Source of the DNA: a virus
Virus record (IMG/VR): IMGVR_UViG_3300044470_000123
Coordinates: 4,106 to 68,105 of that record
DNA length: 64,000 nucleotides
Reading direction: 5' to 3' (one strand)
In this document: piece by piece, positions 23,701-64,000 of the stretch
How positions within the stretch are numbered: position 1 is the stretch's first letter
Layout: each line of letters starts with the position of its first letter
Translations under genes and position numbers: made by a program
The notes under the pieces: generated by a model
Databases searched by the model: none
Told to the model about the DNA's origin: nothing
The model's input: only the letters and a program-made list of their open reading frames with translations

Positions 23701-25564
23701 CTCCAAAAGGATCCTTCACAGGTACTGATACTACTTCGTTCTGTATACTAAATCTAAGATTAAAAGGATCCACCGTACTAAGTATATCATCTATAATAGT
23801 CATCGTATAACTTTTTGGATCCTTAATCACAGGCTGTAGTATACAATTTATCTGTGCAAAAGGAGTATATGATACCTTAAGAGACTGTAAATTCTCTGTA
23901 ACTGATTGATTTAAAAGGGTAACTTTACCTGTCAAATAAGATAAAGTGAAATCTACACCCTCTACTAATATCTTTATTCCAGATCCTGTGCTAGCTCCTG
24001 CTGTGGTCATATAACTCTTAGTTATAGTTACAGAAGACTCTATGACAGGATACTCAGAAGTACGTAGAGTACTTAAATTAAGCTTCTCATCTACTACATC
24101 TTCCCCTTCAACGAAATAAGATACTAACACACACTCGCTTGGCTTAAGAGGCTTAGCAAGTTTGATAGCCCCACTAGTATACTCGATAGTATAATCTGTG
24201 CCGTTTATTAGATCGTTTTGGTCTATATCCTCAAAGAAAATAGGACTATTTATACCTGTTAGCCCTGCTATCCCATAAGGTAGAACTAAGTTACTTTTAT
24301 CTGAAGACTGTATCCCTGTCGTACCTTTAACTACACTTATCCCATCCCACAGTAGATTTTTACTATAAATTATGTTTTGGACTACAGTCTCTAGATTTTG
24401 ATGTTTTATAAAATTTACTATACCATTATCATACTCTACATTATAGTCAAAAAATCTATTTTTTATCTCTTCACCTACTTTAACTTCTAATCCTTTATAC
24501 TCTGTATTACCATCATATAGTATAGCATTAGGGTATATGTTTGTTACAGCCTTGCCTATTGCTGTAGGAGTAATAGGAGTTTCGTGTATATTAAAAAGTC
24601 CTTGAAAATTTTGATCTATACTATTTATCTGTGTAACATTATCTAGCTCACTAAGGAATTTTAAATAGGCTACTGTCCTATCTTTATAAGGAGGCTTAGC
24701 ACTAGTATAATCTGGATCCATTTGGTAGTTTACAGTGTAGTCTATATCCTTAGTTTTCTTGGCTAGGTTATTAGGTGGACCGTAGAAAACTTGAAAATTC
24801 TGATCATCATCAGGATACGGTATAGGTATAAGAGCTAACTCTTCTGTATCTACTACTAATTTAGAAGATAAAATCTTTTGACCGTAAGACTCTTTAGGAT
24901 CGATAGCTGTTGTATCTACAGATGTTATATCTGGAGCTGTTTTAGTAGTAGACTTTAAAAAAGTAAACTCTAGCGGATCACCTAAAATATACTGCTTTTT
25001 TACAGGGGTAGCTACTAGAGGACCACTTGGCTGGATCCCTGTATATCTCCAGTCATTATTATTTTTATCATAATAGAACTTATTAGCTCCTGAAGGACTA
25101 GATATGTACTCAAAATAAGTGCTATTTAACTTGATTTTTCTAGCCTGGAATGTGCAAGTACCTGTCTCACTGGTATTCGGATCTTGAAGATATATAGTAG
25201 ATAGGTCTTTAGACATACCTGTTACATTATAAAATACTTCTGAGCCGTCTGCCCTTATGATATCTCCAAATATTAGGGAGTCAGCTGGCTGTAATCCATT
25301 TAGCCCTGTTACATTGGTTATTTTTCTATCGTTTATAGTATAAGTTCCTGATCCCTCAATAATGCTACCTCGCACAGCTCCTTGTATAAGATAATCAGTA
25401 TTTACATCTCTTTCCCCAGTATAGATGTAACCGTCAGATCCTATCCCTGTGCAACCTATATCTATAGTTCTAGATGTAGGTCTATTCTTAGTGCCAACTC
25501 TTGGGTTTCGGACTACCGTATTCTCTAAATCGATAGATGTGTAATTAAAGAAGTCTAGATTCAT
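14792..25564 (-). CDS. Giant 3590-aa virion (baseplate/fibre) protein
   Basis: Uninterrupted ORF; repeated L-x-E/N-G-x-D-Y-T-I-x-Y..G beta modules and repeated Y-x-T-I-x-D-L..AIN units; baseplate context. Confidence 0.75.
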   Translation of the reverse strand: MNLDFFNYTSIDLENTVVRNPRVGTKNRPTSRTIDIGCTGIGSDGYIYTGERDVNTDYLIQGAVRGSIIEGSGTYTINDRKITNVTGLNGLQPADSLIFGDIIRADGSEVFYNVTGMSKDLSTIYLQDPNTSETGTCTFQARKIKLNSTYFEYISSPSGANKFYYDKNNNDWRYTGIQPSGPLVATPVKKQYILGDPLEFTFLKSTTKTAPDITSVDTTAIDPKESYGQKILSSKLVVDTEELALIPIPYPDDDQNFQVFYGPPNNLAKKTKDIDYTVNYQMDPDYTSAKPPYKDRTVAYLKFLSELDNVTQINSIDQNFQGLFNIHETPITPTAIGKAVTNIYPNAILYDGNTEYKGLEVKVGEEIKNRFFDYNVEYDNGIVNFIKHQNLETVVQNIIYSKNLLWDGISVVKGTTGIQSSDKSNLVLPYGIAGLTGINSPIFFEDIDQNDLINGTDYTIEYTSGAIKLAKPLKPSECVLVSYFVEGEDVVDEKLNLSTLRTSEYPVIESSVTITKSYMTTAGASTGSGIKILVEGVDFTLSYLTGKVTLLNQSVTENLQSLKVSYTPFAQINCILQPVIKDPKSYTMTIIDDILSTVDPFNLRFSIQNEVVSVPVKDPFGENPTTYSGSILPNSLLSVKGFGEPGYGLNNLTVNQMIDLGMTGLESLGLDTKLGLTVDAFYAIGITGIIELGLTPGKSLDYNTTNYTYKDDTKILALDNKYNINIPRPDLNDLILATYSFVSDVLPYAPIQTIFPIFNQDESSFIIEGYDKTDIIVPGMIFRIDNFDPEDSYYFKVANVIYDGYNTTVYLTGSFPEDIRKPSFYLFDDIVQWHSFPTGTKVDSNVSVGSNTLSLTGNLLQISQLIKNNSLIQLDNLNIYRAISKAVVNDTIQIGIFPNLLEGQYSDIKITDSIYQVGDTSLISEYPVIIDPPHPAFSLRYVAPTNAIYGTATIFIDAEKITLSEVVDDVTATYIFYFQNYGSIRDMVDAIVTTKSTIDPKYIYNIGPFTLLSKEGAEQYYIGSGFWGTEIIQPFTGSVPVVIPDEGYLFTISQEMYKYILINTTQGAQNFLVKKKDVTSYFSSGELLSFISKATGSLSFYEIGSVTLITADTQINFADSFTENMIDPYIYKYDSVNWIDTDSVGFSVSDNTITFSVNSQYFRIGSLLKIDSKYVYQIQNIEVGGFSVTITVNKTINTLIRGVEKVLVSDMPIYLSGVSPQDYFNIDYTLPAGRSGGATIYIDDRYITVTETLDGSTSVTKQIDMFRYGNLVQIASALSRLSLTVSGSIFVGLTDDQEDKYLALGNKAALAPTVVPVPLSTSIKIDISAFRINYTSPDSTVASEILLPPGVDYLVINEWKKSDKTNTLVAHTVIFSGKTLDQITTEISSLSSIIIGQTPWSIDQKDYDTFYGSSSIVYYTIVQASDSIAKSFPYSIKVIVNPEFWYQVPILNRNLLKEGKDYSIEGTHAELVTPISISERYELSYLGLDDLAEDSGSSIACSCRYFNSIPKGYQINVYMDYLNVDQYYVQKLTERAFLEIVTVPQIKDLLQQAGESAGIGNDSGSDNPPAVYQGGLTDLYYALKDELIKKAIYLKLFAWYKQRLRNFAAEAQLILGLKYGHSTFVGVLPNGQFTLQDAYVENNNYTLTTLSDIAQINNGFSKFFPVGYNDPAPQPYPRFEDTYQSYNQVFCYNIQYLDTTGKFIRNEGRVLSIKPYWANIVDSTTTFSSLDFDMLPYTQDTSFIKDVNGNPLYTIPYDQEEKHFRVTDTNFKFLERIAVGDQVQLNSFKTFYDIDTVTQVDPTSLITSEGPVEEIMFGSGATGTFIGQPLFYGNISDPNDPNYSPVYGIYKQQDPTKRFYVTSAEAKAGLLGGVPVLRQSDQGYTGINPSGPNAASNPIIGLGYTPENITTYEKLILKNGEYFTEPNIQTFAMHQSGDTKVAGTDYGWIYEYTKKNIIGIPVSYTKTLFEFECELPKDGQNINVKRVSSNDFPISFPAYDDEYNLGVKAIGSKLMDQKTGSDTIVKTFDLSDFLGINVGDDKTFTVYEGTYNDLTGLWQARDTINIVTTPLNYFDERSVTRILETIKYGVDGYSLPVPFPPFIIKISNIRDKKAQSGADKLFYISFDKKYEANESSLGYYESIVFRARDRNSWVTFNTADDASNITRDYGFSDPSIFTNFYYPNNLYLKLLIEKQNWLVELNIVKDLFDTSDKLKRAFNLSGVSATTSGPSEFLSYLLQISEDSTVSNINTSINSYAEHLRFLLDSSDTSHKYLIYNTSGPLYRTMMEIGGTTDTDPIHKSYTQAAAAFSNYTNFQGESNLYSSLNNFYYSMWQTQFIKWVLSLEAGSVFQKQAKQAYDLSSAFDVGIETYPAIKLSVIDQTTVSDAKYLVTYNLLATSNSESDEYDDATLLISYQISGSISPIVKSFVLSVYPTLQDLVNAINTQCVNYILAASVFDYFPYRDYSPRYILRNYRSLNNNDSNGPDISISTGGWTILSKDPSIDDRLYVSNVSDHRNYDSRVLFLSRKSISSDTIVSTSSGEVDIAFPNYAESTGKEILGPNKMGPLPVTGKWAEDIIDPINGDTVDYTTELNVLEVTPLSPDDMVIDYEFLGVSSGQDSSVQDTLMYPNYETSPEDLEALGYSYQTKMISEVEPDISEFNQYVSTSDKAADKDNKANFNALLKIVNSVSSTPPPTEILRYLRIRLRVDVSNIGNFRDISFIFTLRQYSTIDELKYALENNRYTIPVNSNTAVLSSTGAQYFTVNYPTGATKTLQGSMKTIDLFSQYVKQTIEVDSHLYYEPEGVYDILSSPVTIQQFIPVTETISSTTGNNFQVGWMLQGQDIIGDRLIKFRIDPKTYSPGTTYRFIPNNPKNSREANLFSQNIKQDILAFDIYSWDNSAAYKIQDNILYLKSASIPETGDLSVSIPLYKTENLDITIDHPEETYKLIDVIRLINNNGLCNQWFFANLRFGREYNSDYEYTYFPNTVQWVGGDGWVSIEKAQLDSLYLDVDNVFTIQSEGNNASYYVTSTDPLPPILDPSVVYKSSLLTIQADTRAFMIVPNTVDYDIVSSSYTVNTVLETMILNALYQTFVSGTATYDTTTFTINTLITAINGGGIFSASLALGMNGALSATTLVESINMSLPGTIYANDGITIRAAIILTMASSSYTGTQYSKPANILSLGYIQTINSNVSHTVDLSVNTTINEVITDINGYDPILGEPLFNANLTWISGSDDSSLLINGTINISIGGTFVRMLGSYSYDLSDQYLISDVVSAINSTTSMTGFSAIGLDTPEYLGYNSLLANLLIPTVSPISFTGTSLLRFDFRSTVGLNVLNMSHTVNINNGVIDPSGEASTCIIDQSGIFSCTKNTKHKNDLFIGNTYTQNIVDKNINKFRMNAMNIDGYLEQLPMYPNFSYAYGILNMDIALLSAGSVSFGKLQAVSKNLGVNDPESAGLNTHVYFGFLGDIRFYQISDYSLWKQYILIRRRLGMPWYKDNNGNFLPDYYVPNSDYSFGNFEYSLNLVENGKFLYYLKYQRFSEIINSLNSEDLYNNKYMWLFLKFHREIGCDQKSIAIQNRINQDKTKALELS

Positions 25565-37718: not shown

Positions 37719-39119
37719 TTATATGATATATTGTATAGATAATTTAAATATTGATTTTGTATGAAATACTTTTTTTACTGATTTTTTAATATTAAAATCA
37801 ATTTTATTTATCCCGTTAAAACAACGAACAGATCTTCCACAATGATGACTACCATTAACCACATATTTTTTACTGTTAATTGTAACTGTATCGTAAGGCT
37901 GTATAGAATATCTATGCCTTCTAATAGATGGTTTAAAACCTTTCCTATTTAACTGTATTATTCTATTATTTTTATGTTTTTGCTTAAAATATGTAGGATT
38001 AATTCTAATCTGATTAGTACCTCCTGCTATAACAAATGCATCATTATAATGGGTCTTTTCTAATCCTAACTCATTCCTATTAACAAAAGTCTCATATCCG
38101 TAAACTATCTTACAGTTTGGTAATATTTTTTTATATATGTGTTGAACTATTGTCATAAACGCAGCGTCTTTATATTGTTTATTCCTCTTAAGAGTGTCAA
38201 ATAATTTATTTTTATGAAGTTTATCATGACATTTTTCATGCAATAAAGCTAAATTATCTTGCTTATTAGGGCCACCTTTAGATCTAGGTATAATGTGATG
38301 TATATGAGAGGAATTACCTTTACTAAACTCTTTATTACATAGCTGGCACTTTCCTTTTTCTCTGGCCATCAAATAAATTCTCATGTTTTGATACTCATAC
38401 ATGGGTCCTTGTTGGTACTCTAATTTAGTTATTTTTTGATTTTCTATTTTCTGGATATCAAAATTTCCTACCTCTATAGTTATATCTTCCTCATTTATAG
38501 GAAATCTTAATCTCAGTTTATTGATAAAATTTATATGAGTGTTAAACTTCCTTTTAATTGATGGGGCTAACCAACCTTTTGTTCTGGCGTTAGATCTATT
38601 GTTGTGTCTAGCCTCTCTATACCACATCTTATCTCTACGTCCACCTCGATACATACTTTTACTTATTAATCTTTCAGGAGTTTTCTGATCCAAATAAACT
38701 TCTCCTGTAATTATCTCTTCATCTTTAGTTATAACAGAAAATCCTATCTTCTTAGAGCCTGAGTCTATTCCAAAAGAATACTTCTTAACAGTTTCTCCTG
38801 TAGCCTTATTAAGTTGAATAGTAAAGAATAACCCGTTTTCTACGACATGTGCCTCTCCTTTTTTAAGTAGCTTTCTAGCCTTGCAGGGACTGCAAGGCTC
38901 AAGAGGTTTACCCCTCTTATTGAGTACACAAACTTTGGCAAATACCCTCAGGTCTTGCCCCTCTTTGTGTTGAGGTGGATCCACTTCGAGATTGTTTAAA
39001 GTCAGTACTTTGCTCGCCACACTGAGACTTTCGTCTCTGTTTAATGGCATGCTTGTAGAGCTACAGACTTGTGGAGCATCCGTAGGTACGTACTTTAACT
39101 TTCCTTTAAACTGCTGCAT
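37719..39119 (-). CDS. iscB: IscB RNA-guided endonuclease (IS200/IS605 OMEGA)
   Basis: PLMP-like KPLEPCSPCKARKLLK; RuvC-I GIDSG; Arg-rich bridge helix; RuvC-II IEVGNFD; HNH CQLC..HIHHIIPRSKGG..NL..H..CH; RuvC-III THYNDA. Confidence 0.95.
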   Translation of the reverse strand: MQQFKGKLKYVPTDAPQVCSSTSMPLNRDESLSVASKVLTLNNLEVDPPQHKEGQDLRVFAKVCVLNKRGKPLEPCSPCKARKLLKKGEAHVVENGLFFTIQLNKATGETVKKYSFGIDSGSKKIGFSVITKDEEIITGEVYLDQKTPERLISKSMYRGGRRDKMWYREARHNNRSNARTKGWLAPSIKRKFNTHINFINKLRLRFPINEEDITIEVGNFDIQKIENQKITKLEYQQGPMYEYQNMRIYLMAREKGKCQLCNKEFSKGNSSHIHHIIPRSKGGPNKQDNLALLHEKCHDKLHKNKLFDTLKRNKQYKDAAFMTIVQHIYKKILPNCKIVYGYETFVNRNELGLEKTHYNDAFVIAGGTNQIRINPTYFKQKHKNNRIIQLNRKGFKPSIRRHRYSIQPYDTVTINSKKYVVNGSHHCGRSVRCFNGINKIDFNIKKSVKKVFHTKSIFKLSIQYII

Positions 39120-46486: not shown

Positions 46487-48637
46487 TTACCGTTTTAGTA
46501 TGTTAGCAGTTAAAATTTCTGTAATATTTTTAATTTCTTTATATGAAATTCTTAATAAAGGTATATTATTCTTTAAACAATATTCGTTTTTTAAAGAATC
46601 GTTATATTTTTGAATTTCAAATGCTTCTACAATTTCTTCTTCAGATAAATCTCTATTAAATCTAGTTGGCTTATAATGTATAATTCCGTCATATTCACAA
46701 AGTAGATTTATACTAGGTATATAAAAATCAAATCTTAAAGGAATCTTTTTTCTAAAACCTTTTAAATCGTGAAATGAATATTGCGGTTTAAATTCAACAT
46801 TATTAAATATTAACCAATCTATTATGGTTATTTCTCCTAAAGAAGAACTGCACATATTACAACCGTACCCTAATAAGTGATATTGCGGGGCTTGCCAAAA
46901 TTCCCCATGCTTTTTACATATTATGCAAATTTTTAATTTACTGCTAACATATTTTACTTTCGTATACTCATATCTGTCTCCATGAGTATCTTTAGATTTT
47001 AAAATAAACTCTTCTGTAGTTGTAGTTCTTTTTTCAAGAGAACTTAGTTTACCACAAACAGGACAACCTGTACCGCGTGTGTGGGTACGGGGTATCTGCC
47101 AAAACTCTCCGTGTATTCTACATATGATACATACTTTTATTTTAGTTTTAATATATTCTACTTTTGAGTAATCGTATCTATCTCCATGAATTACTTTAGC
47201 TTTTATAATAAATTCTTCTTTTATACTAACTCTTTTTTTAGCTGCTTTTAAATGTCCGCAAATAATACATCCATAACCTTGTAAATGTCCTAGTGGTACT
47301 TAGTAAAACTCACCATGCTTTCTACAGATAATACAAACAGGAGTGTGCATATCAATATATTCTACTTTTGAGTAATCATATTCTCCTTTAAAATGTACTT
47401 TTTCAGCTCTGGTAATAAACTCTGAACTAGTAAGACTGTTATTTTCATAAGCACAAGCGTTGCATCCATATTTTTGCAAATGAAGTGTTGGTGTTTGAAA
47501 AAAATCTCCATGTTTTTTACATGTTATACAAACTTTTTTATTTGTTTTAATGTAATCTACTTTTGAATAAATATAGGTATCTTTACCGTGTATAATTTTT
47601 GATTTTTTTATAAACTCCTCTGTATTTGAAGAATTTACAGAAGAAATTATCTCTAAAGCACATTTTTGGCAACCTCTTCCGTTTAGGTGTGAATCTGCTT
47701 TCTGCCAAAATTCACCGTGTTTTTCACATAATATACAAATTTTTGACTTACTGCCAGTATAGTTTGTTTTTAAATAAGTATACCTATTTTTATGTACTTT
47801 TTTTGCTTTTTCTATATACTCTTCTGTAGTTACTGTACTATCTACCCTAACACATACGGGACAATCTTGACCGGACAAATGATTACCAGGAGTTTGCAAA
47901 AACTCTCCGTGAATAAGACATCTTATACAGACTTTCTTATCAGATCCTATATAATTTACTTTACTATATTCATATCTATTACCGTGAACTATTGTAGCTT
48001 TTTTTATAAATTTTTCTTTAGCATCTAAAATCCTTCTATTACTGTATTCCTCTGTAGCACACCTAAAGCATCCATTTTTATTTAAATGACTACTAGGGCA
48101 CTGCATAAATTCTCCATGTACCTTACATATAATACAAACTTTATCTACAGTATTAATATAAACTACTTTATCATAGATATATCTATCTCCGTGCACACTT
48201 ATTGCTTTACTTATAAATTCTCCTGTTGTCATTGTTCTAGTTTTACTACCATCTATAGGACATCCGCTACCATTCAAATGATTTGAAGGAATCTGCATAA
48301 ATTCACCGTGCTTTTTACATACTATACAAACCGGTACAAAACTACCATAATATTTAACTTTTGAATAATCGTACTTATTTCCATGAATAGAAATAGCTTC
48401 CTTTATAAAATCATTTTTTGTCTTCATTTTTTTAATACTTCTATTATTTATATCACATTTTTTACATTTAGAACCTACTAAATGACTGTACGGGGCTTGT
48501 AAAAAATCTCCGTGTATTCTACATGTAATTATTATTTTTATACAGGCTCCTAAATATTCTACTTTATCATAAATATACCTATCCCCGTGTTTAGCTCTTG
48601 CTCTTTCTATAAATTTTTCAGTCGTAAATTTTTGCAT
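46487..48637 (-). pseudogene. Homing-endonuclease-like gene: 9 DUF723-like Zn-finger repeats plus a C-terminal PD-(D/E)XK nuclease, interrupted by one in-frame TAA (47300-47302)
   Basis: ORFs 47300-48637 and 46487-46855 share a frame. The 148 intervening codons are open and finish repeat 7 and encode two more repeats. The TAA sits where all other repeats have Gln (HGEFxQ). Nuclease motif LRFDFYIP..LLCEYDGIIHY. Confidence 0.85.
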
Positions 48638-49776: not shown

Positions 49777-50784
49777 TTAATCGTTCATTGCAGCAACAAG
49801 CAATCCTTTAGCTACATCGTTTAAAAGATCCTTTGAAAGCTTAATTTCCGATATCCCTAGGGGAAACGTGTCTTTTACCTTGTCAAATTCCTGCTTAAAT
49901 AATTCAAGGAAATTTCCAGCTTTTGCAGTACCACCAGACAATACCCAGACTACATCTTCAGGAAGTTCAATCTTACTATTATTCTTCTTGAGCTCTTTCT
50001 TAATCTCATTAATAGTATTCCTAATAAGATTTTTATAATAAACTATGATAGCTTCTCTCTCTCTAATATTTTTAGGATCACCAGTAGAAGGGTCAAGCAA
50101 ATCTACCCCTTTCTCTTTAATTGACATAATCTTAGTTGAGGTAGTTCCCGTAGCTTTGGCTGCGCTAGAATCTATCCAGTCGCCACTGTTATTTACTGAG
50201 AAAGCTAAACCGACTACCGTTTTAAATAATAAAGCTGTATTTACTAAGCCTGCTCCAAACGATGTGCTCAAGGCTGTAAAACCCTGCTCCTGACAATTGG
50301 AATATACAATTGCGGATGCTTCGTTCATAGGGACAGCACGAAATTTCATATTCTCGATTATCTTCTTAAAAATCTGTTCATGATATACTACATCAGAGGT
50401 ATCATTTATAGGGGCAGCAGGTACTGAGTAGTATACAACTTCATTCTCTACTCTAGGCTCCTTAAGGACACTCTTAACAAGTATAGATAATATCTTTTCA
50501 GCTTCTAGCTCTCCTGCAGAGATAAGACCCTTACTAAGAGGTCTCCTTACATCTTTCTTAAACATATTAGCAAAATTTAGTGCAGCTTCGCCTATAATGT
50601 AGATGTACTCTTTATCTTGTAGGTATGAAACATTTCCCATCTTAAGCATATTTAATACTGTAGGATCAGATTCAATATCTAAGAAGATATCCCGAACAGA
50701 ATTAATCTGAACCTCAGATTGAGGATTACCTGGGTCTTTTGAAGCACAAACAATGTTGCTTGTGCCGATGTCAAGTCCGATCAT
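49777..50784 (-). CDS. Actin-like ATPase (MreB/MamK/ParM superfamily)
   Basis: Phosphate-1 IGLDIGTSNIV; RRPLSKG; YSVPA; connect-1 MNEASAI; phosphate-2-like SFGAGLVN; adenosine LSGGTA; terminal DVAKGLL. Confidence 0.88.
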   Translation of the reverse strand: MIGLDIGTSNIVCASKDPGNPQSEVQINSVRDIFLDIESDPTVLNMLKMGNVSYLQDKEYIYIIGEAALNFANMFKKDVRRPLSKGLISAGELEAEKILSILVKSVLKEPRVENEVVYYSVPAAPINDTSDVVYHEQIFKKIIENMKFRAVPMNEASAIVYSNCQEQGFTALSTSFGAGLVNTALLFKTVVGLAFSVNNSGDWIDSSAAKATGTTSTKIMSIKEKGVDLLDPSTGDPKNIREREAIIVYYKNLIRNTINEIKKELKKNNSKIELPEDVVWVLSGGTAKAGNFLELFKQEFDKVKDTFPLGISEIKLSKDLLNDVAKGLLVAAMND

Positions 50785-55409: not shown

Positions 55410-56120
55410 TTAAACAGCTCCAGGAGAGTTGTCATCTGGGTCGAGTTTTATGTGCTTGGGATATGGAAGTTTATCAAATATATCTTCTTTTACTGTGCTA
55501 GACTCTTGTGCTTTATCTTTATTTTTATATCTTTGTTCTTTAGTTACTAACAATAGTGGATTTTCTACACCATAACGAGCCATATTTGTGTCTTTAGCCT
55601 TTTGAAAAACATCAGGATTTTGCATTGGACTTTTATACCCAAATTTTTCTATGTTCGTCTTTATAATTTTATCTTGTATCTCTTTTGACTTAAAAACATT
55701 ATCTACTCCGTATTTTTCACGTACTGTTTCAGTTACCCTAGCTCTAACAGAAGCGGACTGAGTTGGGTAATCTGTACCTCTATTAGCTCTATTAGTTTTT
55801 TTAGTTTCTTCTTGAACAGCGTCTTCATCCCTAACAAGTCTGAGTACCATATTGGCATGCCACCTAATAGCTTTCCAAGTTTTACCTAGAAATTTAGACA
55901 TGATAAATTCATGGGTATTAGAAGCATATATCTCTTCAAGAAGATTATCTTCTGCTTCAGTCCACCCTCCTTCCCTATCTCTTGATAGCCCTAATAATAT
56001 AGATCGTCTATAAATAGATTTCCATTCTCTATTAGGGAGTTTTGATAGGATAACTTCCTTAATAGAATTTTCATAGACTTCTTTAAGTATTTTGTCTTCT
56101 TCTAGAGTCCAGTGGATCAT
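55410..56120 (-). CDS. DNA-binding repeat protein (Myb-like WT.EED repeats plus T..EKYGV.N repeats) without a nuclease domain
   Basis: WTLEEDKILKE and WTEAEDNLLEE; TVREKYGVDNV, TNIEKFGYKSP, TNMARYGVENP. Confidence 0.65.
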   Translation of the reverse strand: MIHWTLEEDKILKEVYENSIKEVILSKLPNREWKSIYRRSILLGLSRDREGGWTEAEDNLLEEIYASNTHEFIMSKFLGKTWKAIRWHANMVLRLVRDEDAVQEETKKTNRANRGTDYPTQSASVRARVTETVREKYGVDNVFKSKEIQDKIIKTNIEKFGYKSPMQNPDVFQKAKDTNMARYGVENPLLLVTKEQRYKNKDKAQESSTVKEDIFDKLPYPKHIKLDPDDNSPGAV

Positions 56121-56144
56121 ACGATAGCCTCCTTAATGTTATAT

Positions 56145-56173
56145 AATATACTATTTATCTTGTTTAAAATCAA
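56145..56173 (-). promoter_or_regulatory. Sigma70-type promoter TTGATT-17-TATATT
   Basis: Exact 17-bp spacer, followed by SD AAGGAGG. Confidence 0.65.
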
Positions 56174-56180
56174 ATATTTA

Positions 56181-58469
56181 TTAAATTTTCTGCCAGACTA
56201 ATAAAACTTCAGCAGCTGTAATATCTTTTCTTCTTGTTGAAGTGAACCAATACATAGTATCTTTTTCTAATAAAGTAGTCTTAGGAAGATACTCTTTAAG
56301 ATATCTTGGAATATTTAATACAAAATATCCTTTTGATTTTAGTGCCTTTTCAGCATATATAAATATATTTTTTATAAGTGTTTCCCATTGATTTTTATCC
56401 ATTGGCTTTCCATATACTTCTAAATCTATGTATGGCGGTGAAGTCATAATAAGATCACAAGCTACCGGTGCGGTATTTAAATAAAAATCAGAATTTATTA
56501 TATGTGCTTTATCTTTTAAACCATAGTAGTCTATAATACTATTTAATCCTTTAGCAGTTTTATCCCAAGGTTCAAATCCACAATAGTTTCTATTAGCAGA
56601 TACAGTACCTAATAATCTGCCTCCCCAACCTGCACAGGGGTCTACTACAGTATCTCCAACTTTAGAGTATCTTTCTACAATAGCTTTTGCTACACTACAC
56701 GGGAATCCAGTTACTCCCCCATTAAAGTATACCAAACTTTTATATAAAAAATCCGGCAAAATAGTTTTATTAGCTTTATAAGTGTATATTAAAGCTGATC
56801 TTAGTGCTGTAAAATTATTGAATGTGCTAAAAGGTGATACACCTTTATATTTAGATTCTACCATATGAGGCATAAAATTTTTGAATATTTTATTACCTGC
56901 GCTTAGATACCTTATAACATTATTATTTTTCCAGATATAACTAGTATTTAGTTCACACATACTCTCATATTCTTTATTAAGATAATCTTCATTTATATTA
57001 AAATAAGGAAATCCTCTTTTTTGATAATATTCCGTAACTCTATTCCATATATACTCATATTTTTCTGCTATGTAACTATTAATTAAACAAAGATCAAAAT
57101 CATTTTCTACTTTAACATCAAATAACTCTGGTAAATGTTGTTTCCAAAAAGACCCTACTTCAGAAGCATCTGGTACTTTATCAGCCATGCACGGTATAAG
57201 ATACTTTGGATTTATCCCTTCCACTCTTACTGTTGATTCATTTTCTAATTTTAGTTTTTCTCGAAATATGTATCTATTCTCAAATTTAGAGATATATTCC
57301 TTTTTCATACTCATATCAGTACTACTGCCAAAATAGAAACCGTCATCCATATAATAGCAAGCCCATCCTAGTTCAGTTAGTTCTGAAAATATCTTTTCTA
57401 AATTTTTTGTCCCGTTCTCGTTTATGTATTTGTTATAATCTCCTATATTTGGGCAAGATATACCTAGTTGTTCTATACCTCCAAAAATCATGAGTTTTTC
57501 AGTTGATGAAAAATGTGAGGCAGGTACCGTTACAATATTTGAAACACTGTTATATAAAACCTGTCTTTTTAGATATAAATATGATAATTGTTTTAAACTG
57601 TGATTGGTTACAAAACGCCCATATTCATCTAGATGCCCGTCTCCTGCTAGCCAACCAAGAATACATTGATGCCTTTCTTCTTGAGATAATTCAAAACTTG
57701 GTTTAGGTAAATTTAGTAAATAGTCTCTTAAATATTCTAAATTTTTAGACCATAGCCTTCTATCATCTAAAATTTCAAGATTATTTTCTTTAAATTTTCT
57801 TTTAACAACAGTACTAGATATACCTATTTCTTCACACAGTCCTTTCATACTAATTTTTGATTTAATTTTATCATCTAACCAATCTTTATCTATAGTATCA
57901 AATTTATTACTAACCTCATTAACTAGATATTTTCTTAAACTAACAAGACCTATTTTCTTAATATAGGTTAAAATAATATCATCAGATATATAAACTCCTA
58001 ATTCCTTATTTAATATATTACTTATGTCTGATATTCTGTTTCCATCTTCTATCAATTTTTTAGCGTAGTCGTAGGATAGATGACTATAAAGCCACTCTTC
58101 TTTAGAAGGAAACTTACAATCTACTTTATTTATTAGATGATATTCTATGGTATGTGGAAGGGCATCAAAATTATGCTGTTCTTTAAGTACCTTACTAATT
58201 TCTTCAGAATACATTAATTTATTAATTCTTAGATCTACTGCTATTTTAGTCATTTCCTCTGACCAAATTGTCTCTTCTTTGATTTCTCTTTTGTTCTCTA
58301 AAAAACCTTTTTTCTTTAATATACTAATCTGTCTTTTTATCCAACGAGGGGATTCATTTAATTTTGCGGCTAGCTCTGGGCGAGTGAGTGTAGAGAAGTT
58401 GTCTATTATGAATGATAACTTCTCTACAGATTTTCTATCGGCAGTAATTCCTTTTGTGGGACCTGACAT
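56181..58469 (-). CDS. HTH-repeat / LAGLIDADG-like / amino-DNA-methyltransferase fusion protein
   Basis: ILGWLAGDGHL..HS.KQLSYLYLK and LGWACYYMDDG (LAGLIDADG_2 pattern); VVDPCAGWGGRL (SAM motif I); TSPPY (motif IV). Confidence 0.8.
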   Translation of the reverse strand: MSGPTKGITADRKSVEKLSFIIDNFSTLTRPELAAKLNESPRWIKRQISILKKKGFLENKREIKEETIWSEEMTKIAVDLRINKLMYSEEISKVLKEQHNFDALPHTIEYHLINKVDCKFPSKEEWLYSHLSYDYAKKLIEDGNRISDISNILNKELGVYISDDIILTYIKKIGLVSLRKYLVNEVSNKFDTIDKDWLDDKIKSKISMKGLCEEIGISSTVVKRKFKENNLEILDDRRLWSKNLEYLRDYLLNLPKPSFELSQEERHQCILGWLAGDGHLDEYGRFVTNHSLKQLSYLYLKRQVLYNSVSNIVTVPASHFSSTEKLMIFGGIEQLGISCPNIGDYNKYINENGTKNLEKIFSELTELGWACYYMDDGFYFGSSTDMSMKKEYISKFENRYIFREKLKLENESTVRVEGINPKYLIPCMADKVPDASEVGSFWKQHLPELFDVKVENDFDLCLINSYIAEKYEYIWNRVTEYYQKRGFPYFNINEDYLNKEYESMCELNTSYIWKNNNVIRYLSAGNKIFKNFMPHMVESKYKGVSPFSTFNNFTALRSALIYTYKANKTILPDFLYKSLVYFNGGVTGFPCSVAKAIVERYSKVGDTVVDPCAGWGGRLLGTVSANRNYCGFEPWDKTAKGLNSIIDYYGLKDKAHIINSDFYLNTAPVACDLIMTSPPYIDLEVYGKPMDKNQWETLIKNIFIYAEKALKSKGYFVLNIPRYLKEYLPKTTLLEKDTMYWFTSTRRKDITAAEVLLVWQKI

Positions 58470-58549: not shown

Positions 58550-60121
58550 TTAAGACCATCCTCCTCTACTTCCGCTTGCGAAATTACGCCTTGACTGAGT
58601 ACCTGGACGTGAAAAAGGGCCAAGTGATGAACTTATGCCTATCCCATAACGTGGCTGATTTAATCCTTTTATTATCTTTATCGAACGTTTAATTAACTCT
58701 CTAGATTTTTCCCATTCCGCTAGAAAATTATCTTTCATTGCTTCATACTTTGAAGATTTCTCTATGTCAAGGGATACTCCAGAAATTGAATAACTATTGT
58801 GGGCTAAAATTCCAGAGTCAAGTACAAAATTTTCTGCAGCAGGTACTGAAAAATCATAGGTTTTATTTTGGGGTTCTATTTCTTCTTTTTGGACTATTTC
58901 TATAGGTTCAAATTTGTCTGAAAATTCTAAACCTACTATTTTATCTCCTACTTTTAAATCTTTAGTCTTAATAGGTTCTTTTGTGTCCCATAAAAATAAA
59001 CTATGATCTTCTGTAACTTCAATTGAGTTAATTTCTGTACTTATTCTAAACATTTTCTTTTGAGAGGTATTATGCTGCATAAAATTAGAAACAGGGACCC
59101 ACTCTAGTTTTTCCGACTTATTAACCATGGCTTGAACTTCAAGTGTTCCGTTAAAAAAAGATTTTTTTATCTTTTCCTTATTAATTTCTCTTATTCTTTC
59201 TTGTAAACTTTTTATAGCTTCTATACCTACATAAGGATCTTTTTTTATGTCATGTTCCTTAATCCTTATAATAGTCCAACCTCTGTTCTTAAGAAAAGTT
59301 TCTTTTCTTTTATCTATCTCTATTATCCTTTTATTTCCTTCAAAACCACAAGATTTACATCCGTGCCAATAACAGCCATCTACCTCTACTGCTATTTTTG
59401 CTAAAGGATCCGCTTCATCTATAGAATAAAATCTATATGTATACTCTGTAACAAAACCAGTCAATCCTCTTTCTTGCATTTTTTCTTTATAGGTTAAATG
59501 TACTGAGCTTGTTTTTTGCATCATTTTTCTTGCCCTTGCTGCTGATTTATCAAGAGCCTCTTTATTATCTTTAACGTATTGTTTGTTTTTTTCTCTAAAC
59601 TCCGGGTCTGACCACATTTTTTTAGATTGTTTCCTATGAAGCTCTATAATTTCAGGTCTGTTTTGATACTCTATAGCCCACTCACTTCTTTTTTTTAAAA
59701 ATTCTGGATCAGAGTTAAGTTTTATACTAGCAATTTTTATTTGTTCTCTAGTTATTTCTCCTTCAGAAGTTTGAAATCTTTTTTTAAGGGTCTCTGATTG
59801 TTTCTGTTTTCTTTTTTCAGAGTGCTTTATTTGTTCATTATATACTCTAGAACAAATTCTTATCCTATCATTATTCTCTAATTTATCACAATAATTATAA
59901 TGTATTACTGTAATACTAGACATTTTTTTACTGCAATAAGGACAAACTACATAATGTTCACCCTCTATTAAATTATTTATAGCATCTTTTTCTATGTATG
60001 ACCTAGTTCCTTTAATCTTTTTAACTTTTTTTATTTTAACTATACCTAACTCTATTAAAGAATCTAACCACTGTGCTTCAAAATTATTAATAATACAAAA
60101 CTGTCTTTTAGATATTTTCAT
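58550..60121 (-). CDS. Vsr-like endonuclease + C-terminal split-intein half + 81-aa C-extein
   Basis: IDEAD..IAVEVDGCYWHG...DKRK..L...GW.IIRIKE nuclease; intein block B VTEDHS, block F TYDFSV..ENF, block G ILAHN/S (Asn codon 58796-58798). Confidence 0.88.
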   Translation of the reverse strand: MKISKRQFCIINNFEAQWLDSLIELGIVKIKKVKKIKGTRSYIEKDAINNLIEGEHYVVCPYCSKKMSSITVIHYNYCDKLENNDRIRICSRVYNEQIKHSEKRKQKQSETLKKRFQTSEGEITREQIKIASIKLNSDPEFLKKRSEWAIEYQNRPEIIELHRKQSKKMWSDPEFREKNKQYVKDNKEALDKSAARARKMMQKTSSVHLTYKEKMQERGLTGFVTEYTYRFYSIDEADPLAKIAVEVDGCYWHGCKSCGFEGNKRIIEIDKRKETFLKNRGWTIIRIKEHDIKKDPYVGIEAIKSLQERIREINKEKIKKSFFNGTLEVQAMVNKSEKLEWVPVSNFMQHNTSQKKMFRISTEINSIEVTEDHSLFLWDTKEPIKTKDLKVGDKIVGLEFSDKFEPIEIVQKEEIEPQNKTYDFSVPAAENFVLDSGILAHNSYSISGVSLDIEKSSKYEAMKDNFLAEWEKSRELIKRSIKIIKGLNQPRYGIGISSSLGPFSRPGTQSRRNFASGSRGGWS

Positions 60122-60932
60122 CAGATATCTCCTTCAATATCTCTTCAAAATCTCTATTAACTTCTTCGTGTATCCTTTTTAACTTGTCCCCATATAAAAT
60201 ATCAAAAAGTTCTTCACAGGTTAAAGTATATCTATTCCCTTCTTCATCTTTTACCATTATATATTCTTTTCCAGAAATACTAAATTCATCACTTATCCAA
60301 TTCATTGTAACAGCACCGCATGCAAAAGCTCCAGCTCTTAATAAAATATTAGTTCTCCACCTATCTGGAATATTATCAAGAGTTACTCCTGTAACAGGAG
60401 GAGATGAGTTTATCTCATCTACTGCCATAAGAAGATATTCATAAAGCTCTTCATCCTCCCATATATAGCCAAAAACTTTAGTTTGAGTCTGCATAAATTT
60501 TTCTGTAGCTGGTTGACGAAAGCGAAAATTTCTATCAGGATTATTGTCCCGTAATATAATTCTCAACCTCTTAACAAGGACATCCTGTTTACTAGTTTGT
60601 GCTATAGCAGTTTGAACATTAGTATCAATAACAGTAAACTCTTGTACTACTTCTATCAGGGGGGTGATAGGAGTCTCATTAAAGTGCCATCTGATTATCC
60701 AGTCGCCTATATTAGCATCTAGGGGTATCGTGGAGTTAGCATAGTACTGCCCCACACCAGATGTGGCGGGGATCATATCAGGAACCCCTATTAGAACCTC
60801 TAAACCAGTAGTATAATCGAAGATAGAGAAGCGGATGTAATAAGGGTCCACCGGGACTCCAGAAGCGTTTCTTATTACGATTTTGAGGTCTGAGGCCTGG
60901 AGCTGATAACCTTTAGGAAAAGTGACAGACAT
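60108..60932 (-). CDS. N-extein of a virion (head-tail adaptor-like) protein + 57-aa N-terminal split-intein half
   Basis: ...WISDEF|SISGKEYIMV..G..TLTCEELFD matches intein block A from codon 60279-60281; Ig-like N-domain and LRIILRD helical domain. Confidence 0.75.
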   Translation of the reverse strand: MSVTFPKGYQLQASDLKIVIRNASGVPVDPYYIRFSIFDYTTGLEVLIGVPDMIPATSGVGQYYANSTIPLDANIGDWIIRWHFNETPITPLIEVVQEFTVIDTNVQTAIAQTSKQDVLVKRLRIILRDNNPDRNFRFRQPATEKFMQTQTKVFGYIWEDEELYEYLLMAVDEINSSPPVTGVTLDNIPDRWRTNILLRAGAFACGAVTMNWISDEFSISGKEYIMVKDEEGNRYTLTCEELFDILYGDKLKRIHEEVNRDFEEILKEISDENI

Positions 60933-60933
60933 G

Positions 60934-61584
60934 TTAGCACTGCTCCTCTGAAAAGTCGAAAGAATCGATATAGTTTAACATTACTTTATGTGAAAACTTA
61001 GCATAGGCCATTTCAGGTGAAAATTTACCACTATATGGAGTAGGCTTAGTATATCTTAACTGTGTGGATTTACTAGGTTTAGGAGCTTCTTGTTTACCAA
61101 AAAATCCTTGATTATTCAAAATGGACATATAGGTGGCTTCTTTTAGAGCTACATTAAGTTCATCGTATAACTCTTGTTCAGTCACAGGTTTACCTTGAAA
61201 GTGACTTACTAGTTTTTTCTTTATTTCTGGGGTAATCTGTCTAAAGACATTTTTAAGCATAGCTATTTTAGCTGTGTCTAGGTCTGGTGGTACATATTTT
61301 CCTTTATCCACAGAGTACAGTAGCCCCAGTATTTTAGGTACAGTTGTAGCCTCTCCTCCGAACAAGCTAAGAATATAGTTTATAACGTTTTTAGAAACTT
61401 CTTCTCTACCTACGAATTTGAATAAGGGTTGATTTCTATTCTCCCATATATCTCTTGCTGCTTCCTCAGTCTTATCTCCGAATCTATCTATAAGCTTCTC
61501 ATAAACTCTCTTAGATTCTTCCAGGAAGCCAGCTAGGACTGTTCTAAGGAAGAGTCGAAAAGTAGGAGAGGATATTGAGGACAT
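60934..61584 (-). CDS. Hypothetical protein
   Basis: 216-aa ORF downstream of a late motif, coupled to the next gene. Confidence 0.55.
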   Translation of the reverse strand: MSSISSPTFRLFLRTVLAGFLEESKRVYEKLIDRFGDKTEEAARDIWENRNQPLFKFVGREEVSKNVINYILSLFGGEATTVPKILGLLYSVDKGKYVPPDLDTAKIAMLKNVFRQITPEIKKKLVSHFQGKPVTEQELYDELNVALKEATYMSILNNQGFFGKQEAPKPSKSTQLRYTKPTPYSGKFSPEMAYAKFSHKVMLNYIDSFDFSEEQC

Positions 61585-61640
61585 AAAAAGTATTCCAAAT
61601 AAAGATAAACTACAGATAGAACTTCTTTTATAGTGGATAT

Positions 61641-61655
61641 TATTAAAAGGATATT
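61641..61655 (-). promoter_or_regulatory. Putative late promoter motif AATATCCTTTTAATA
   Basis: Recurrent motif, back-to-back with the divergent sigma70-type promoter. Confidence 0.6.
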
Positions 61656-61660
61656 AGGAC

Positions 61661-61689
61661 TTGATTTCCCTGTTTCAAAAAAGTATATT
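61661..61689 (+). promoter_or_regulatory. Sigma70-type early promoter TTGATT-17-TATATT
   Basis: TTGATTTCCCTGTTTCAAAAAAGTATATT; near-identical copy at 62364; SD GGAGG follows. Confidence 0.7.
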
Positions 61690-61707
61690 ATAAATGGAGG
61701 ATAATAA

Positions 61708-62013
61708 ATGAAGAAACCTTTAAAATATACTATGGCAGATATTAACAATCTTAAACAAACTATAGAACATAACTATAATCAAATGTTTATGGGACAATGG
61801 TTTAATACATATAGTATCTTAGGCAGCTCAGAAAATCTTTTAGAAATCCATAAAGATATTAAAAACGCCAGGAAAACTACAAAAGAAGATGTTAGAAAAC
61901 ATTTCACTGTATTTTATAATATTGTTTATAGATATAATCTTGAGCAACTTATCCCTTATTTAAATTCAGAGTTTGAGCCTATAATATATTGGAGATACAG
62001 TCTTGGAAAATAA
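61708..62013 (+). CDS. Paralog family member 1 (LExLIPYLNxEFEPIxxWRYSL C-motif)
   Basis: Shared C-terminal motif; SD GGAGG. Confidence 0.8.
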   Translation: MKKPLKYTMADINNLKQTIEHNYNQMFMGQWFNTYSILGSSENLLEIHKDIKNARKTTKEDVRKHFTVFYNIVYRYNLEQLIPYLNSEFEPIIYWRYSLGK

Positions 62014-62350
62014 AGATATATATTTTTCTATTGCAGAACTAACAGATTTAACGAGTCTTCTTTGGAATACTTGGAAAACTATTTATAAATATGAACGCAC
62101 TAAAAGATTTTATGTTCAGCTTCCAACTATATGCAAAGTTTTAAAATTTAGAATAAATTCCTCTAAAACTCCTGAACAGGCTAGAAATAAAATTTTTCGG
62201 ATAAAATATCGTATGAAAACTATAGACGCTATATATGATTATGACCTTATATTCAAGCTAATTTATGAACTATCTCTTGAGCAACTTATCCCCTACCTAA
62301 ACACAGAATTCGAACCTATAGTCTATTGGCGCTACAGTCTTAATAAATAA
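62003..62350 (+). CDS. Paralog family member 2
   Basis: Shared C-terminal motif; TTG start with GGAG 8 nt upstream. Confidence 0.75.
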   Translation: MENKDIYFSIAELTDLTSLLWNTWKTIYKYERTKRFYVQLPTICKVLKFRINSSKTPEQARNKIFRIKYRMKTIDAIYDYDLIFKLIYELSLEQLIPYLNTEFEPIVYWRYSLNK

Positions 62351-62363
62351 TCTTCTTTTATAT

Positions 62364-62392
62364 TTGATTTCCCTGTTTCAAAATAGTATATT
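62364..62392 (+). promoter_or_regulatory. Sigma70-type early promoter, duplicate of 61661
   Basis: TTGATTTCCCTGTTTCAAAATAGTATATT; ATG lies 8 nt after the -10, implying a leaderless mRNA. Confidence 0.7.
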
Positions 62393-62400
62393 ATAAACAT

Positions 62401-62724
62401 ATGAAAATAAACCCTACTATACTATCTACAGCTAAACGCAAAGCTTTGCAGTCCAACTGCAGGTATAAAATATCAGCACTTGGCTTCTCTCGTCGTAATG
62501 AGCTCATAGACTCAACTACTAACTATCACAGGTGGGATGGAAAAGGTAAAGGGCTTCATGCTGAAATGATACTTATGAAGCGGAATCCTCTTTCTCTTAA
62601 GAGTATTATAATTTGTAGGGTGAATCAGAATGGTGAGTTTCTTCCTATAGACCCGTGTCCGGTATGCTCACAGAAGGCTAAAGAGCTAAGTATAAAAATA
62701 TATACTATTAAAAGCAGTGACTAA
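62401..62724 (+). CDS. Zinc-dependent cytidine/dCMP-type deaminase-fold protein
   Basis: LHAEM...PIDPCPVC (HxE...PCxxC). Confidence 0.85.
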   Translation: MKINPTILSTAKRKALQSNCRYKISALGFSRRNELIDSTTNYHRWDGKGKGLHAEMILMKRNPLSLKSIIICRVNQNGEFLPIDPCPVCSQKAKELSIKIYTIKSSD

Positions 62725-62726
62725 CT

Positions 62727-63053
62727 ATGAACACTTATACCACTAAAGAGCTTGAAGATCTTAGACTCTATATGAATTATAATTATGCTTATTTAAATCT
62801 TACTAGAGTTTTTATTAAAAAAGATATTATGACCTATGAATCTCTAAATAATACTAAAGGACTTCTTAATAACTACAAGGATCCTGATATCATTTACAGT
62901 AAAATTCTAGAGTTTTCTAAACTTAGTGAAGCACATAGGCTCATATTTAATATCATCTATTCTAAAACCCTAGAAGAGCTTATACCTTATCTGAATACCG
63001 AATTTGAGCCTATAGTTGTGTGGAGGTACAGTCTAGAAAAGAAACAGATATGA
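62727..63053 (+). CDS. Paralog family member 3
   Basis: YTTKELEDL N-helix; LEELIPYLNTEFEPIVVWRYSL. Confidence 0.8.
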   Translation: MNTYTTKELEDLRLYMNYNYAYLNLTRVFIKKDIMTYESLNNTKGLLNNYKDPDIIYSKILEFSKLSEAHRLIFNIIYSKTLEELIPYLNTEFEPIVVWRYSLEKKQI

Positions 63054-63397
63054 TAGAGCCCACCTTAGAAGAACTTAGAGATCTGGCTTATATTTTGGAA
63101 TCTACTTGTAAATTTGAGCAAGTAAGTAAACAAGCAAGCAGAACTTACTATAAAAATTATTTTTATATTATAGGCAGTATTATAGAAGCAGACGGTGTAT
63201 CTCCTGAAACAATTAATTTCAGGATTAATAGAAAAGCTATTCAATCTTCAGATAACCCTAGAAAACAAAAAATTATTAGAAAAATATATGATTTAATTTA
63301 CGAGTGTTCCTTGGAGCAACTTATCCCTTATCTAAATACAGATTTTGAACCAATAGTCTATTGGAGATATAGTCTTTCAGGAAAATCAAATGAATAA
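63050..63397 (+). CDS. Paralog family member 4 (likely start ATG 63050, ATGA overlap)
   Basis: PTLEELRDL N-helix; LEQLIPYLNTDFEPIVYWRYSL. Confidence 0.78.
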   Translation: MIEPTLEELRDLAYILESTCKFEQVSKQASRTYYKNYFYIIGSIIEADGVSPETINFRINRKAIQSSDNPRKQKIIRKIYDLIYECSLEQLIPYLNTDFEPIVYWRYSLSGKSNE

Positions 63398-63698
63398 CTA
63401 CTCAAAAGAAGAATTAAATGACTTAAAAAACATAATAGCTAATCTAAATGATTTTAAAATTGAGCACTTTTTTTGGAATAATATACATATTATCTTGTCA
63501 CAATTTCAAAAACCAAAAAAAGTTAAACGCGAACTAAACAAATTAAAAAATATAGATCGTAATAGAATTTTTAAAAATAAGCACTATCCAACATTGTTTT
63601 ATAAAATACTATATGTTTATTCTTTAGAAAATCTTATCCCTTATCTTAATACAGAATTCGAACCTATAGTTTATTGGCGCTACAGTCTTAAGCACTAA
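63390..63698 (+). CDS. Paralog family member 5
   Basis: YSKEELNDL N-helix; LENLIPYLNTEFEPIVYWRYSL. Confidence 0.8.
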   Translation: MNNYSKEELNDLKNIIANLNDFKIEHFFWNNIHIILSQFQKPKKVKRELNKLKNIDRNRIFKNKHYPTLFYKILYVYSLENLIPYLNTEFEPIVYWRYSLKH

Positions 63699-64000
63699 GG
63701 AACTATAGTAAATGAAGCAGGCAGGTCAAAAGCCTCTGGTAGTACAGTAAAAGTAGCTGGTAAATCATTATTACAGTAGAAATAAATAAACTGAACAGCC
63801 CTATAACCACTATTAAGAACTTGGAAAGTATTCGTAATAGTTTGCACAGGTCCTGTAAGAGAAGTCTGATAGCTCCAAACGATATTATAATATCCGGTAG
63901 GCCAATCATCACCTACTATAAAATTAGCTCTATATACTCCCTGTGTTACCTTCTCTGGAATCCTGTTAATATTCCCCATAGGGATAAGTTCTGAACCGCT
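63695..64000 (-). CDS. Ig-like virion protein, 5' end beyond the window
   Basis: Frame open to the edge (SGSELIPMGN...); GVYRANF....WPTGYYNIVW resembles GQYYANS....ANIGDWIIRW of 60108-60932. Confidence 0.6.
   Translation of the reverse strand, partial: SGSELIPMGNINRIPEKVTQGVYRANFIVGDDWPTGYYNIVWSYQTSLTGPVQTITNTFQVLNSGYRAVQFIYFYCNNDLPATFTVLPEAFDLPASFTIVP

Follow-up and report, generated by a model that had tools for sequence, protein, structure and literature searches.

An accessory island in a fragment of a very large myophage encodes an orphan family of small paralogous proteins and a predicted deaminase

Polymorphic toxin systems include arrays of immunity proteins encoded beside deaminase toxins. 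Among phages, the T-even internal proteins (IPI, IPII, IPIII and their variants) are described as diverse small proteins that share a targeting sequence and whose locus varies from phage to phage, with IPI* acting as a counter-defence inhibitor (PMC3012670), and in Bacillus phage G a zinc ribbon is reported to have been expanded to about 35 copies (PMC7824862). Here we describe an island of six plus-strand open reading frames (ORFs) at positions 61661-63698 of a 64,000-nucleotide window (the whole stretch of viral DNA analysed, corresponding to bases 4106-68105 of the 68,105-base IMG/VR record IMGVR_UViG_3300044470_000123). The island interrupts a block of minus-strand genes, between two genes of that strand that are conserved, and constitutes an accessory operon pair; five of its genes code for small paralogous proteins, M1-M5, and the sixth for a predicted zinc deaminase-like protein. 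As judged by sequence comparison M1-M5 form an orphan family restricted to a small clade, and by analogy with described systems a role in host takeover or counter-defence is plausible.

The five paralogues are recognisable by their ends. Alignment of the five proteins gives 20 invariant columns, 17 of them within the C-terminal 30 residues, and identity between paralogues is 13-47% in the N-terminal segment, 4-19% in the middle, and 69-90% in a C-terminal block of 29 residues (the C-block). A profile built from the five matches only these five in the 68,105-base record (expectation values, E, of 3e-43 to 5e-37), and the next ORF in a six-frame scan of the window reaches only E 0.33. A natural member of 65 amino acids, P0009, has only the two ends, the first helix of the fold described below and the C-block, and is missing the middle altogether. 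An earlier note on this DNA, made from its letters alone, had described constant ends framing a variable middle and a near-invariant C-terminus, and both descriptions are borne out, with the five ORFs lying exactly where it placed them. Its N-terminal motif does mark a shared helix, although M1 carries isoleucine at a position given as leucine, and its island of five genes is one short, the deaminase-like gene having been overlooked.

The family is rare. Searches of M1-M5 against curated libraries (Pfam-A, PHROGs v4, NCBIfam 20 and PADLOC-DB 2) gave a best Pfam-A match of E 0.0027 and 18.2 bits, below the cut-off of 23.9, no NCBIfam match at E<=1, and PADLOC-DB matches of E 0.004 or weaker with a different family each time. 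When 17 members of the family were used, no Pfam family was matched by more than one of them, and the top PHROGs family was matched by three at E 0.12. A HMMER search over 1,835,955,588 representative proteins returned 11 matches at E<=0.001, three of which are the window's M2, its M3 and a variant of M1 (P0001) differing at one residue; these matches span 65-128 amino acids, so that fused forms are absent among them, and their clusters hold one or two members each. Scans of IMG/VR, for which the family profile, P0010, P0006 and P0004 served as queries, produced pattern matches and zero relatives, and none was found in GTDB genome contigs, in a phage collection by blastn with the island or tblastn with M4, or in the two whole phage records nearest by tail sheath. 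In a profile search of PDB sequences the best E was 0.46. With M4 as query the Atlas yielded a top score of 0.86, where recognition falls under the usual mark, and this is no more than a lead. Thus neither a curated library nor a solved structure convincingly matches M1-M5; the literature having been searched by keyword, this absence applies to libraries and structures and not to print.

The content of the array, in both the number and the types of its copies, varies among related phages. Two metagenome contigs, L006 and L007, are syntenic with the island. L006 carries a partial M1-type gene (L006:2-208), a gene in the M2 position (P0007), a promoter block of the type found upstream of the window's deaminase gene, the deaminase, an M3-type and an M4-type gene, and then a minus-strand fibre-like gene of 534 amino acids whose stop directly follows the M4-type gene; there is no M5. 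The corresponding fibre-like gene of the window ends in the ORF at 63695-64000. Alignment of the junction shows that the last gene of L006 resembles window M4 across the C-block and tail, so the difference at M5 is a whole-gene insertion or deletion with its ends at gene borders. L007 has an orthologue of the island's left neighbour (55% identical), a promoter block of the type upstream of M1, the 65-residue P0009, and then the contig end. Two further arrangements come from contigs in sequencing runs that contain the island (three DNA contig runs, X1-X3, labelled as peat metagenomes, with no RNA run listed beside them). One of the three may be the source of the record, and in X2 and X3 the contigs leave parts of the island uncovered. 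A 1555-base X1 contig has the deaminase, about 700 nucleotides (nt), a C-block with the P0006 tail, 166 nt, an M3-type segment and the fibre gene, and in a 6076-base contig a block like that upstream of M1 is joined to the fibre gene with only 563 nt between, an interval that could hold about one small gene. P0006, P0008 and P0012 each lie on a 1748-base contig, which fits the 1555-base arrangement, and P0008 would then occupy a position in an array of that type. A joint from 61690 to 62381, seen in one contig with 21 letters on its shorter side, could be a variant deleted between the two promoters or an assembly effect. The earlier note had called for a strain comparison of cassette gain and loss, and had held that membership of a known family together with a fixed array content would overturn its view; instead the content differs among relatives and no curated profile reached its cut-off, and to this extent that view stands.

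The middles had been termed hypervariable and unalignable, which is apt for paralogues compared with one another; between orthologues, however, they align at 30-67% identity (M5 and P0004 67%, M3 and its L006 counterpart 42%, M4 and P0005 41%, M3 and P0012 38%, M3 and P0010 32%). The M3 type has the most orthologues (L006:861-1196, P0012, P0010 and P0011). In a maximum-likelihood tree of 16 members, from which P0013 was excluded as near-identical to P0010 and in which bootstrap values had not fully settled, M5 groups with P0004 (support 97/99), five M3-type proteins group together (95/95), and M4 groups with P0005 (92/94); M1, M2, P0006, P0007, P0008, P0009 and the partial L006 M1 are poorly placed. 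The well-resolved copies cluster by type and not by genome, and the paralogues therefore predate the sampled phage lineages, as is also indicated by the occurrence of M3-, M4- and M5-type orthologues in other phages. On the evidence of alignments and tree the middles are those of old, fast-evolving paralogues and do not represent a diversifying core. Their pace can be gauged against the neighbouring genes. Between the window and L006 the deaminase is 81% identical, the fibre end 74%, M3 57% and M4 52%, the last figure being that for the orthologue P0005. Nonsynonymous divergence (dN) from L006 is 0.15 for the deaminase and 0.18 for the fibre end; for M2, M3 and M4 respectively it is 0.72, 0.43 and 0.37 in the middles and 0.29, 0.19 and 0.13 in the C-blocks. 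Whole M genes have dN of 0.30-0.54, and both whole genes and middles diverge about 2-5 times as much as the deaminase and fibre genes.

The nucleotide sequences of the C-block indicate how it has been maintained. Ten C-blocks from three phages are identical to one another at 51-70 of 87 nucleotides, and third codon positions agree at 9-20 of 29; for the five window copies alone the figures are 57-68 of 87 and 9-19 of 29, and at positions with the same residue pairs of window copies use identical codons in 7 of 20 to 14 of 21 cases. Because synonymous sites are scrambled, the C-block is kept by selection at the protein level and not by homogenisation of the DNA; for the same reason we rejected the idea of an RNA element conserved within the 3' block. 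The 40/41-nt identity between the 3' ends of M2 and M5 was correctly observed in the earlier note. In a simulation in which synonymous codons were redrawn, the probability of a 41-nt run of this kind in any of the 10 pairs was p = 0.018 with the codon usage of structural genes and p = 0.007 with that of the island; the longest runs with at most one mismatch in the other nine pairs are 13-24 nt. This tract is likely the product of one short conversion event.

The earlier note took recombination by way of the conserved 3' block to be what shuffles the family, and cassette exchange of this kind, as the main driver of variation, would be compatible with any of the functions considered below. The M2/M5 tract with its shared rare codon and the differing content of the arrays both speak for it. 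We nevertheless consider it improbable, since agreement at third positions is so low that, M2/M5 apart, DNA identity is insufficient for homologous exchange, and the copies do not group by genome. The M5 difference, moreover, ends at gene borders, and the C-block of the last L006 gene matches that of window M4, not of M5. Diversity-generating retroelements were also considered and rejected: no reverse transcriptase match (PF00078) occurs in the 68,105-base record, a 14% fragment, and the differences between copies are those of old paralogy. Within 61500-64000 there is no pair of template and variable repeats, since apart from the promoter pair and the five C-blocks that interval has no long direct repeat.

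A confident AlphaFold2 model was obtained for M3 with 17 sequences (predicted local distance difference test, pLDDT, 89.2; predicted template modelling score, pTM, 0.81), the five window copies alone having given a pLDDT of 65. It is a compact six-helix domain with helices at residues 6-26, 34-49, 53-63, 68-79, 83-88 and 94-105, and is weakest at residues 21-30. The N-terminal motif corresponds to helix 1, and the C-block to the end of helix 4, helix 5, an N-T-E-F-E-P loop and helix 6; helices 2 and 3 with their loops are variable in sequence and length, and dispensable. Since P0009 does without them, helix 1 and helices 4-6 would form the core of the domain and helices 2-3 an exchangeable insert. 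The idea that the N- and C-terminal motifs belong to one scaffold thus agrees with the single compact predicted domain; that they pack against each other we infer. In fold searches none of 47 listed Foldseek matches in the PDB reached E<=0.001 (best 2.2), nor did any of 118 listed in BFVD (best 0.93), and the best VIA-align Z among 48,161 chains was 5.0, which is ordinary for helical models; this top row, a colicin D inhibitor chain with 64 residues aligned, is in the noise range. No anti-sigma, DNA-mimic or known anti-defence structure was listed by these searches, an absence that is no proof of differing folds. With a confident model and no convincing fold match the family is a reasonable structural target.

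The order of the island is P1-M1-M2 followed by P2-deaminase-M3-M4-M5, where P1 and P2 are promoter-like blocks (Table 1).

Table 1. Positions of the island's genes, promoter-like blocks and repeated segments, and of a further promoter copy, in window coordinates
Feature	Position	Strand	Length (amino acids)	Isoelectric point	Remarks
P1	61661..61693	+			TTGATT, 17 nt, TATATT; upstream of M1
M1	61708..62013	+	101	9.3	
C-block of M1	61918-62004	+			29 codons
M2	62003..62350	+	115	9.4	TTG start
C-block of M2	62255-62341	+			
M2 half of 41-nt tract	62303..62343	+			M5 half at 63651-63691; 40/41 identical; rare CGC Arg codon shared
P2	62364..62396	+			Promoter-like block; deaminase ATG 8 nt past second hexamer
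Deaminase-like ORF	62401..62724	+	107		HAE at 53-55, PCxxC at 85-89
M3	62727..63053	+	108	6.6	
C-block of M3	62949-63035	+			
M4	63050..63397	+	115	5.6	From ATG 63050
C-block of M4	63290-63376	+			
M5	63390..63698	+	102	9.6	
C-block of M5	63603-63689	+			
Third promoter copy	56141..56173	-			2 mismatches to degenerate consensus; upstream of 236-aa (amino acid) Myb-like/DUF7487 gene

Gene borders within the island are tight and fit co-translation: M1 and M2 overlap by 11 nt, M3 and M4 by 4 nt, and M4 and M5 by 8 nt, with a gap of 2 nt between the deaminase and M3. The TTG start of M2 lies in its overlap with the end of M1 and is preceded at 8 nt by GGAG, within the WRYSL codons of M1. A reading of M4 from GTG 63020, giving 125 amino acids, is less likely because its orthologue and the family N-terminus both start at the ATG. 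The stop of M5 overlaps by 4 nt that of the convergent minus-strand fibre-like gene. Tail-fibre chaperones were rejected as candidates for M1-M5 on the opposite strand and separate promoters of the genes, which is a weak argument.

P1 and P2 form a direct repeat of 48 nt that is 88% identical, and both are listed by a promoter scan; the first 20 bases of the repeat are an exact 20-mer seen twice where 0.02 would be expected. L007 keeps the -35-like and -10-like parts of P1 at the same position with a varied spacer, and L006 has its P2-type block ahead of the deaminase gene. The four instances in three phages have TTGAYTT and AAAAWAGTATATTATAA in common and differ in spacer sequence, and such conserved hexamers with a variable spacer are the pattern expected for a selected sigma-70-type promoter. 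At P1 a GGAGG precedes the M1 ATG, which lies 18 nt past the second hexamer; for three of these four promoters the distance from that hexamer to the ATG is 6-8 nt, and these sites would be expected to give mRNAs with little or no leader. The earlier note had twin promoters driving the island antisense to a late region. The repeat pair and its orientation stand, and the promoters are conserved in relatives, but they are not unique to the island: the third copy in the window precedes the Myb-like/DUF7487 gene (55410-56120, minus strand), outside the island, and in runs X1 and X2 the promoter block is also found ahead of an unrelated gene start (loose ends at 62357 and 62393), so this is a promoter class of the phage. 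The labels early and late are themselves interpretive, since the minus-strand neighbours include a methylase, endonucleases and the Myb-like gene with the same promoter. No terminator-like site was found in 60800-64000, and given this and the overlap between the M5 and fibre-gene stops, the two directions are likely to be transcribed at separate times.

The sixth gene contains HAE and PCPVC motifs at the spacing usual for the zinc and catalytic motifs of deaminases. Its match to Pfam PF00383 is below the gathering cut-off of 25 (E 0.025, 14.9 bits), and the Atlas clusters closest to it (score 0.96) consist of small viral PF00383 proteins, the top three carrying PF00383 in 43-65% of their members. 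We identified 43 relatives of 88-158 amino acids, of which many are recorded with PF00383 and some bear the name cytidine deaminase at source, and H53, E55, C86 and C89 are invariant across a 40-sequence alignment; a search of PDB sequences found nothing at E<=10. The protein resembles viral cytidine and deoxycytidylate deaminase-fold proteins (PF00383) in its HAE and PCxxC motifs, its size (these being about 100-110 amino acids) and its viral distribution, and differs from them in its low score and in ending soon after the strand that follows PCxxC.

The proximity of this gene raises the possibility that M proteins bind the deaminase as regulators, immunity-like inhibitors or substrate adaptors. 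M3 starts directly after the deaminase stop, an L006 family gene overlaps the end of its deaminase, the X1 contig has both kinds of gene in one array, and the C-block could be a common contact. The two families have different distributions, however: the deaminase is much the wider one, some of its relatives lying on contigs as long as 208 kb and its viral Atlas clusters having 50-93 members, compared with only 11 representative clusters for M, and the 485-kb relative has a distant deaminase and no M gene. M1 and M2 are also under their own promoter with no deaminase gene of their own, and we think it a poor prospect that binding to the deaminase is what the family does. A predicted complex of deaminase and M3 (40- and 17-row alignments) scored 0.08 against a mark of 0.32, a value which, obtained without controls, carries no weight either way.

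At somewhat short of an even chance, we favour the reading that M1-M5 are small protein-binding modules with a constant scaffold and a probable common docking surface, deployed for host takeover or counter-defence as sets that differ from strain to strain. The scaffold, and probably the shared docking surface, would consist of helix 1 and the C-block, the surface being provided by the invariant polar residues of the N-T-E-F-E-P loop and of W-R-Y-S, and the variable helices would assign each copy its individual target. Expression from the sigma-70-like promoters would proceed apart from the virion genes, either early or separately timed, and each phage strain would employ its own set against host functions or defences. 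A more specific version, in which the proteins are modular binders of a new fold, with a four-helix scaffold docking on a shared partner and co-evolving with it by lineage, a replaceable helix 2-3 hairpin, and arsenals against host defences that differ between co-occurring strains, seems to us quite unlikely.

Several observations weigh against the binder interpretation. No profile of defence, phage or general libraries matches M1-M5, and the promoter class of the island also drives the minus-strand Myb-like gene, so that expression of the island may not be early. Synonymous divergence (dS) is saturated (above 1 or undefined, and infinite for M3), and the dN/dS values obtained, 0.28-0.54, indicate constraint and no arms race. 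The record is a 14% fragment, and the arrangements in the X1-X3 contigs come from alignments at a likeness of at least 80%, with gene orders inferred from pieces and joints. Finally, hydrophobic or aromatic residues occupy 17 of the 29 C-block positions, so conservation of the block may largely reflect a fold core and not a docking surface.

This last point leads to an alternative that we regard as unlikely but by no means negligible, namely that the ends are simply the hydrophobic core and the proteins either drifting, dispensable ORFans (orphan ORFs) or small proteins that regulate processes of the phage itself, with no shared docking and no arsenal. That every dN/dS estimate is below 1 suits this alternative, as does the report that jumbo phages commonly have small proteins expanded in single lineages (PMC7824862). 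The isoelectric points of the family fit it too, as they range from 4.5 to 9.6 and reveal no shared pattern of charge; uniform DNA mimics are ruled out by the same spread. It accounts less well for seven polar C-block positions (E, N, T/S, E/D, E, R and S) that are invariant or nearly so while other helices have diverged to 4-19% identity, for strain-specific array content, and for a repeated substitution within the C-block. At the LE position all five window copies have E, and K is found in three of four L006 copies (209-490, 861-1196 and 2-208) and in the L007 copy (9929-10126); each E-to-K is a single base change in a separate paralogue, reflecting either parallel change or co-evolution with a common partner. 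The M3-type proteins P0010 and P0011, from more distant phages, are 31-32% identical to M3 in the middle and only 41-45% in the C-block, lower than among the window's paralogues. Together with the E/K pattern, and from few genomes, this gives a hint of a surface that may co-evolve with one partner per lineage.

If M1-M5 are indeed binders, they would offer a compact natural scaffold with one fixed face and one exchangeable face, and the island would provide a marker of arms races fought at strain level by very large soil phages whose hosts are hard to study.

The record is a fragment of a very large, uncultured myophage. CheckV estimates its completeness at 14%, implying a whole genome of several hundred kilobases. 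Nearly all long ORFs of the window are on the minus strand; a tail sheath (PHROG 2839, E 1.2e-25) is encoded among them, together with fibre-like proteins and HNH endonucleases. Judged by the tail sheath, the closest phage records are an uncultured 485-kb phage (33.6% identity) and Tunturiibacter phage Tunturi_5 (308 kb; 33.3%). Tunturi_5 is described as infecting an acidobacterial host (PMC11924767), and the hosts of the present phages may be Acidobacteriota, a weak lead at 33% tail-sheath identity. An Rfam search of 61000-64000 gave a single row at chance level (E 0.77), outside the island.

The minus-strand block contains other genes of note. A 335-amino-acid ORF at 49777-50784 (minus strand), within the structural genes of this very large phage fragment, is a full-length match to the actin-like Volactin family (PF25216, E 5.2e-58). 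The block also includes a single ORF of 3590 amino acids (14792-25564, minus strand) and several others of 585-1467 amino acids for which no PHROG reached E<=1e-5. Free-standing HNH endonuclease genes occur twice amid the virion genes, at 47300-48637 (minus strand; PHROG 681, E 4.7e-89) and 37719-39119 (minus strand; PHROG 119, E 2.6e-54). At 56181-58469 (minus strand) a 762-amino-acid ORF contains an N6/N4 DNA methylase together with a LAGLIDADG endonuclease domain and a helix-turn-helix, and its counterpart in L007 has 760 amino acids. A conserved gene of the virion block (58550-60932, minus strand; L007:7728-9119, minus strand) is interrupted by inteins at differing sites in the two phages. 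The L007 mini-intein follows '...DRNF', where the window gene is uninterrupted, and the window intein, which is larger and has a DUF559/REase-like endonuclease, lies about 80 residues downstream of the L007 site; its sequence is spread across two ORFs that overlap (274 and 523 amino acids), through either a split arrangement or a frameshift. In L006 the fibre gene, which is beta-helix-like, adjoins genes for glycine-rich proteins with GGxGG runs (L006:3185-4108 and L006:4127-4279, both minus strand), two adjacent copies with a near-identical C-terminal motif.

Among described systems, the immunity arrays of polymorphic toxins resemble the island in that a deaminase-fold gene is followed by several small paralogous genes. 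They differ in that the island's deaminase is free-standing, has no domain for delivery and is one of a broad family of viral proteins.

The T-even internal proteins are the nearest analogue in logic, with a short conserved module on diverse small proteins and a polymorphic locus, and the island's locus is likewise polymorphic, as seen in the lack of M5 in L006 and the two X1 contig arrangements. This likeness, and the position of the island among virion genes, could suggest that M1-M5 are themselves packaged in the virion and ejected, the constant block acting as a packaging signal and the variable part as an injected inhibitor. The constant part of the T-even proteins, however, is an N-terminal capsid targeting sequence, whereas that of M1-M5 consists of helix 1 and a C-terminal block, modelled as integral to the fold (helices 4-6), and there is no short N-terminal leader of the kind that the prohead protease removes from the T-even proteins. 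The two groups are unrelated in sequence or fold, and the M genes lie antisense to the virion genes under their own sigma-70-like promoters, so that packaging strikes us as very improbable.

At present the island is best seen as a variable accessory locus encoding a well-documented orphan family, of a kind common in large phage genomes. It shares with jumbo-phage expansions such as the phage G zinc ribbon the presence of many paralogues of a small domain in one very large genome, and is set apart from that example by an all-helical domain with no metal-binding motif, present in five copies in one tandem array of variable content.

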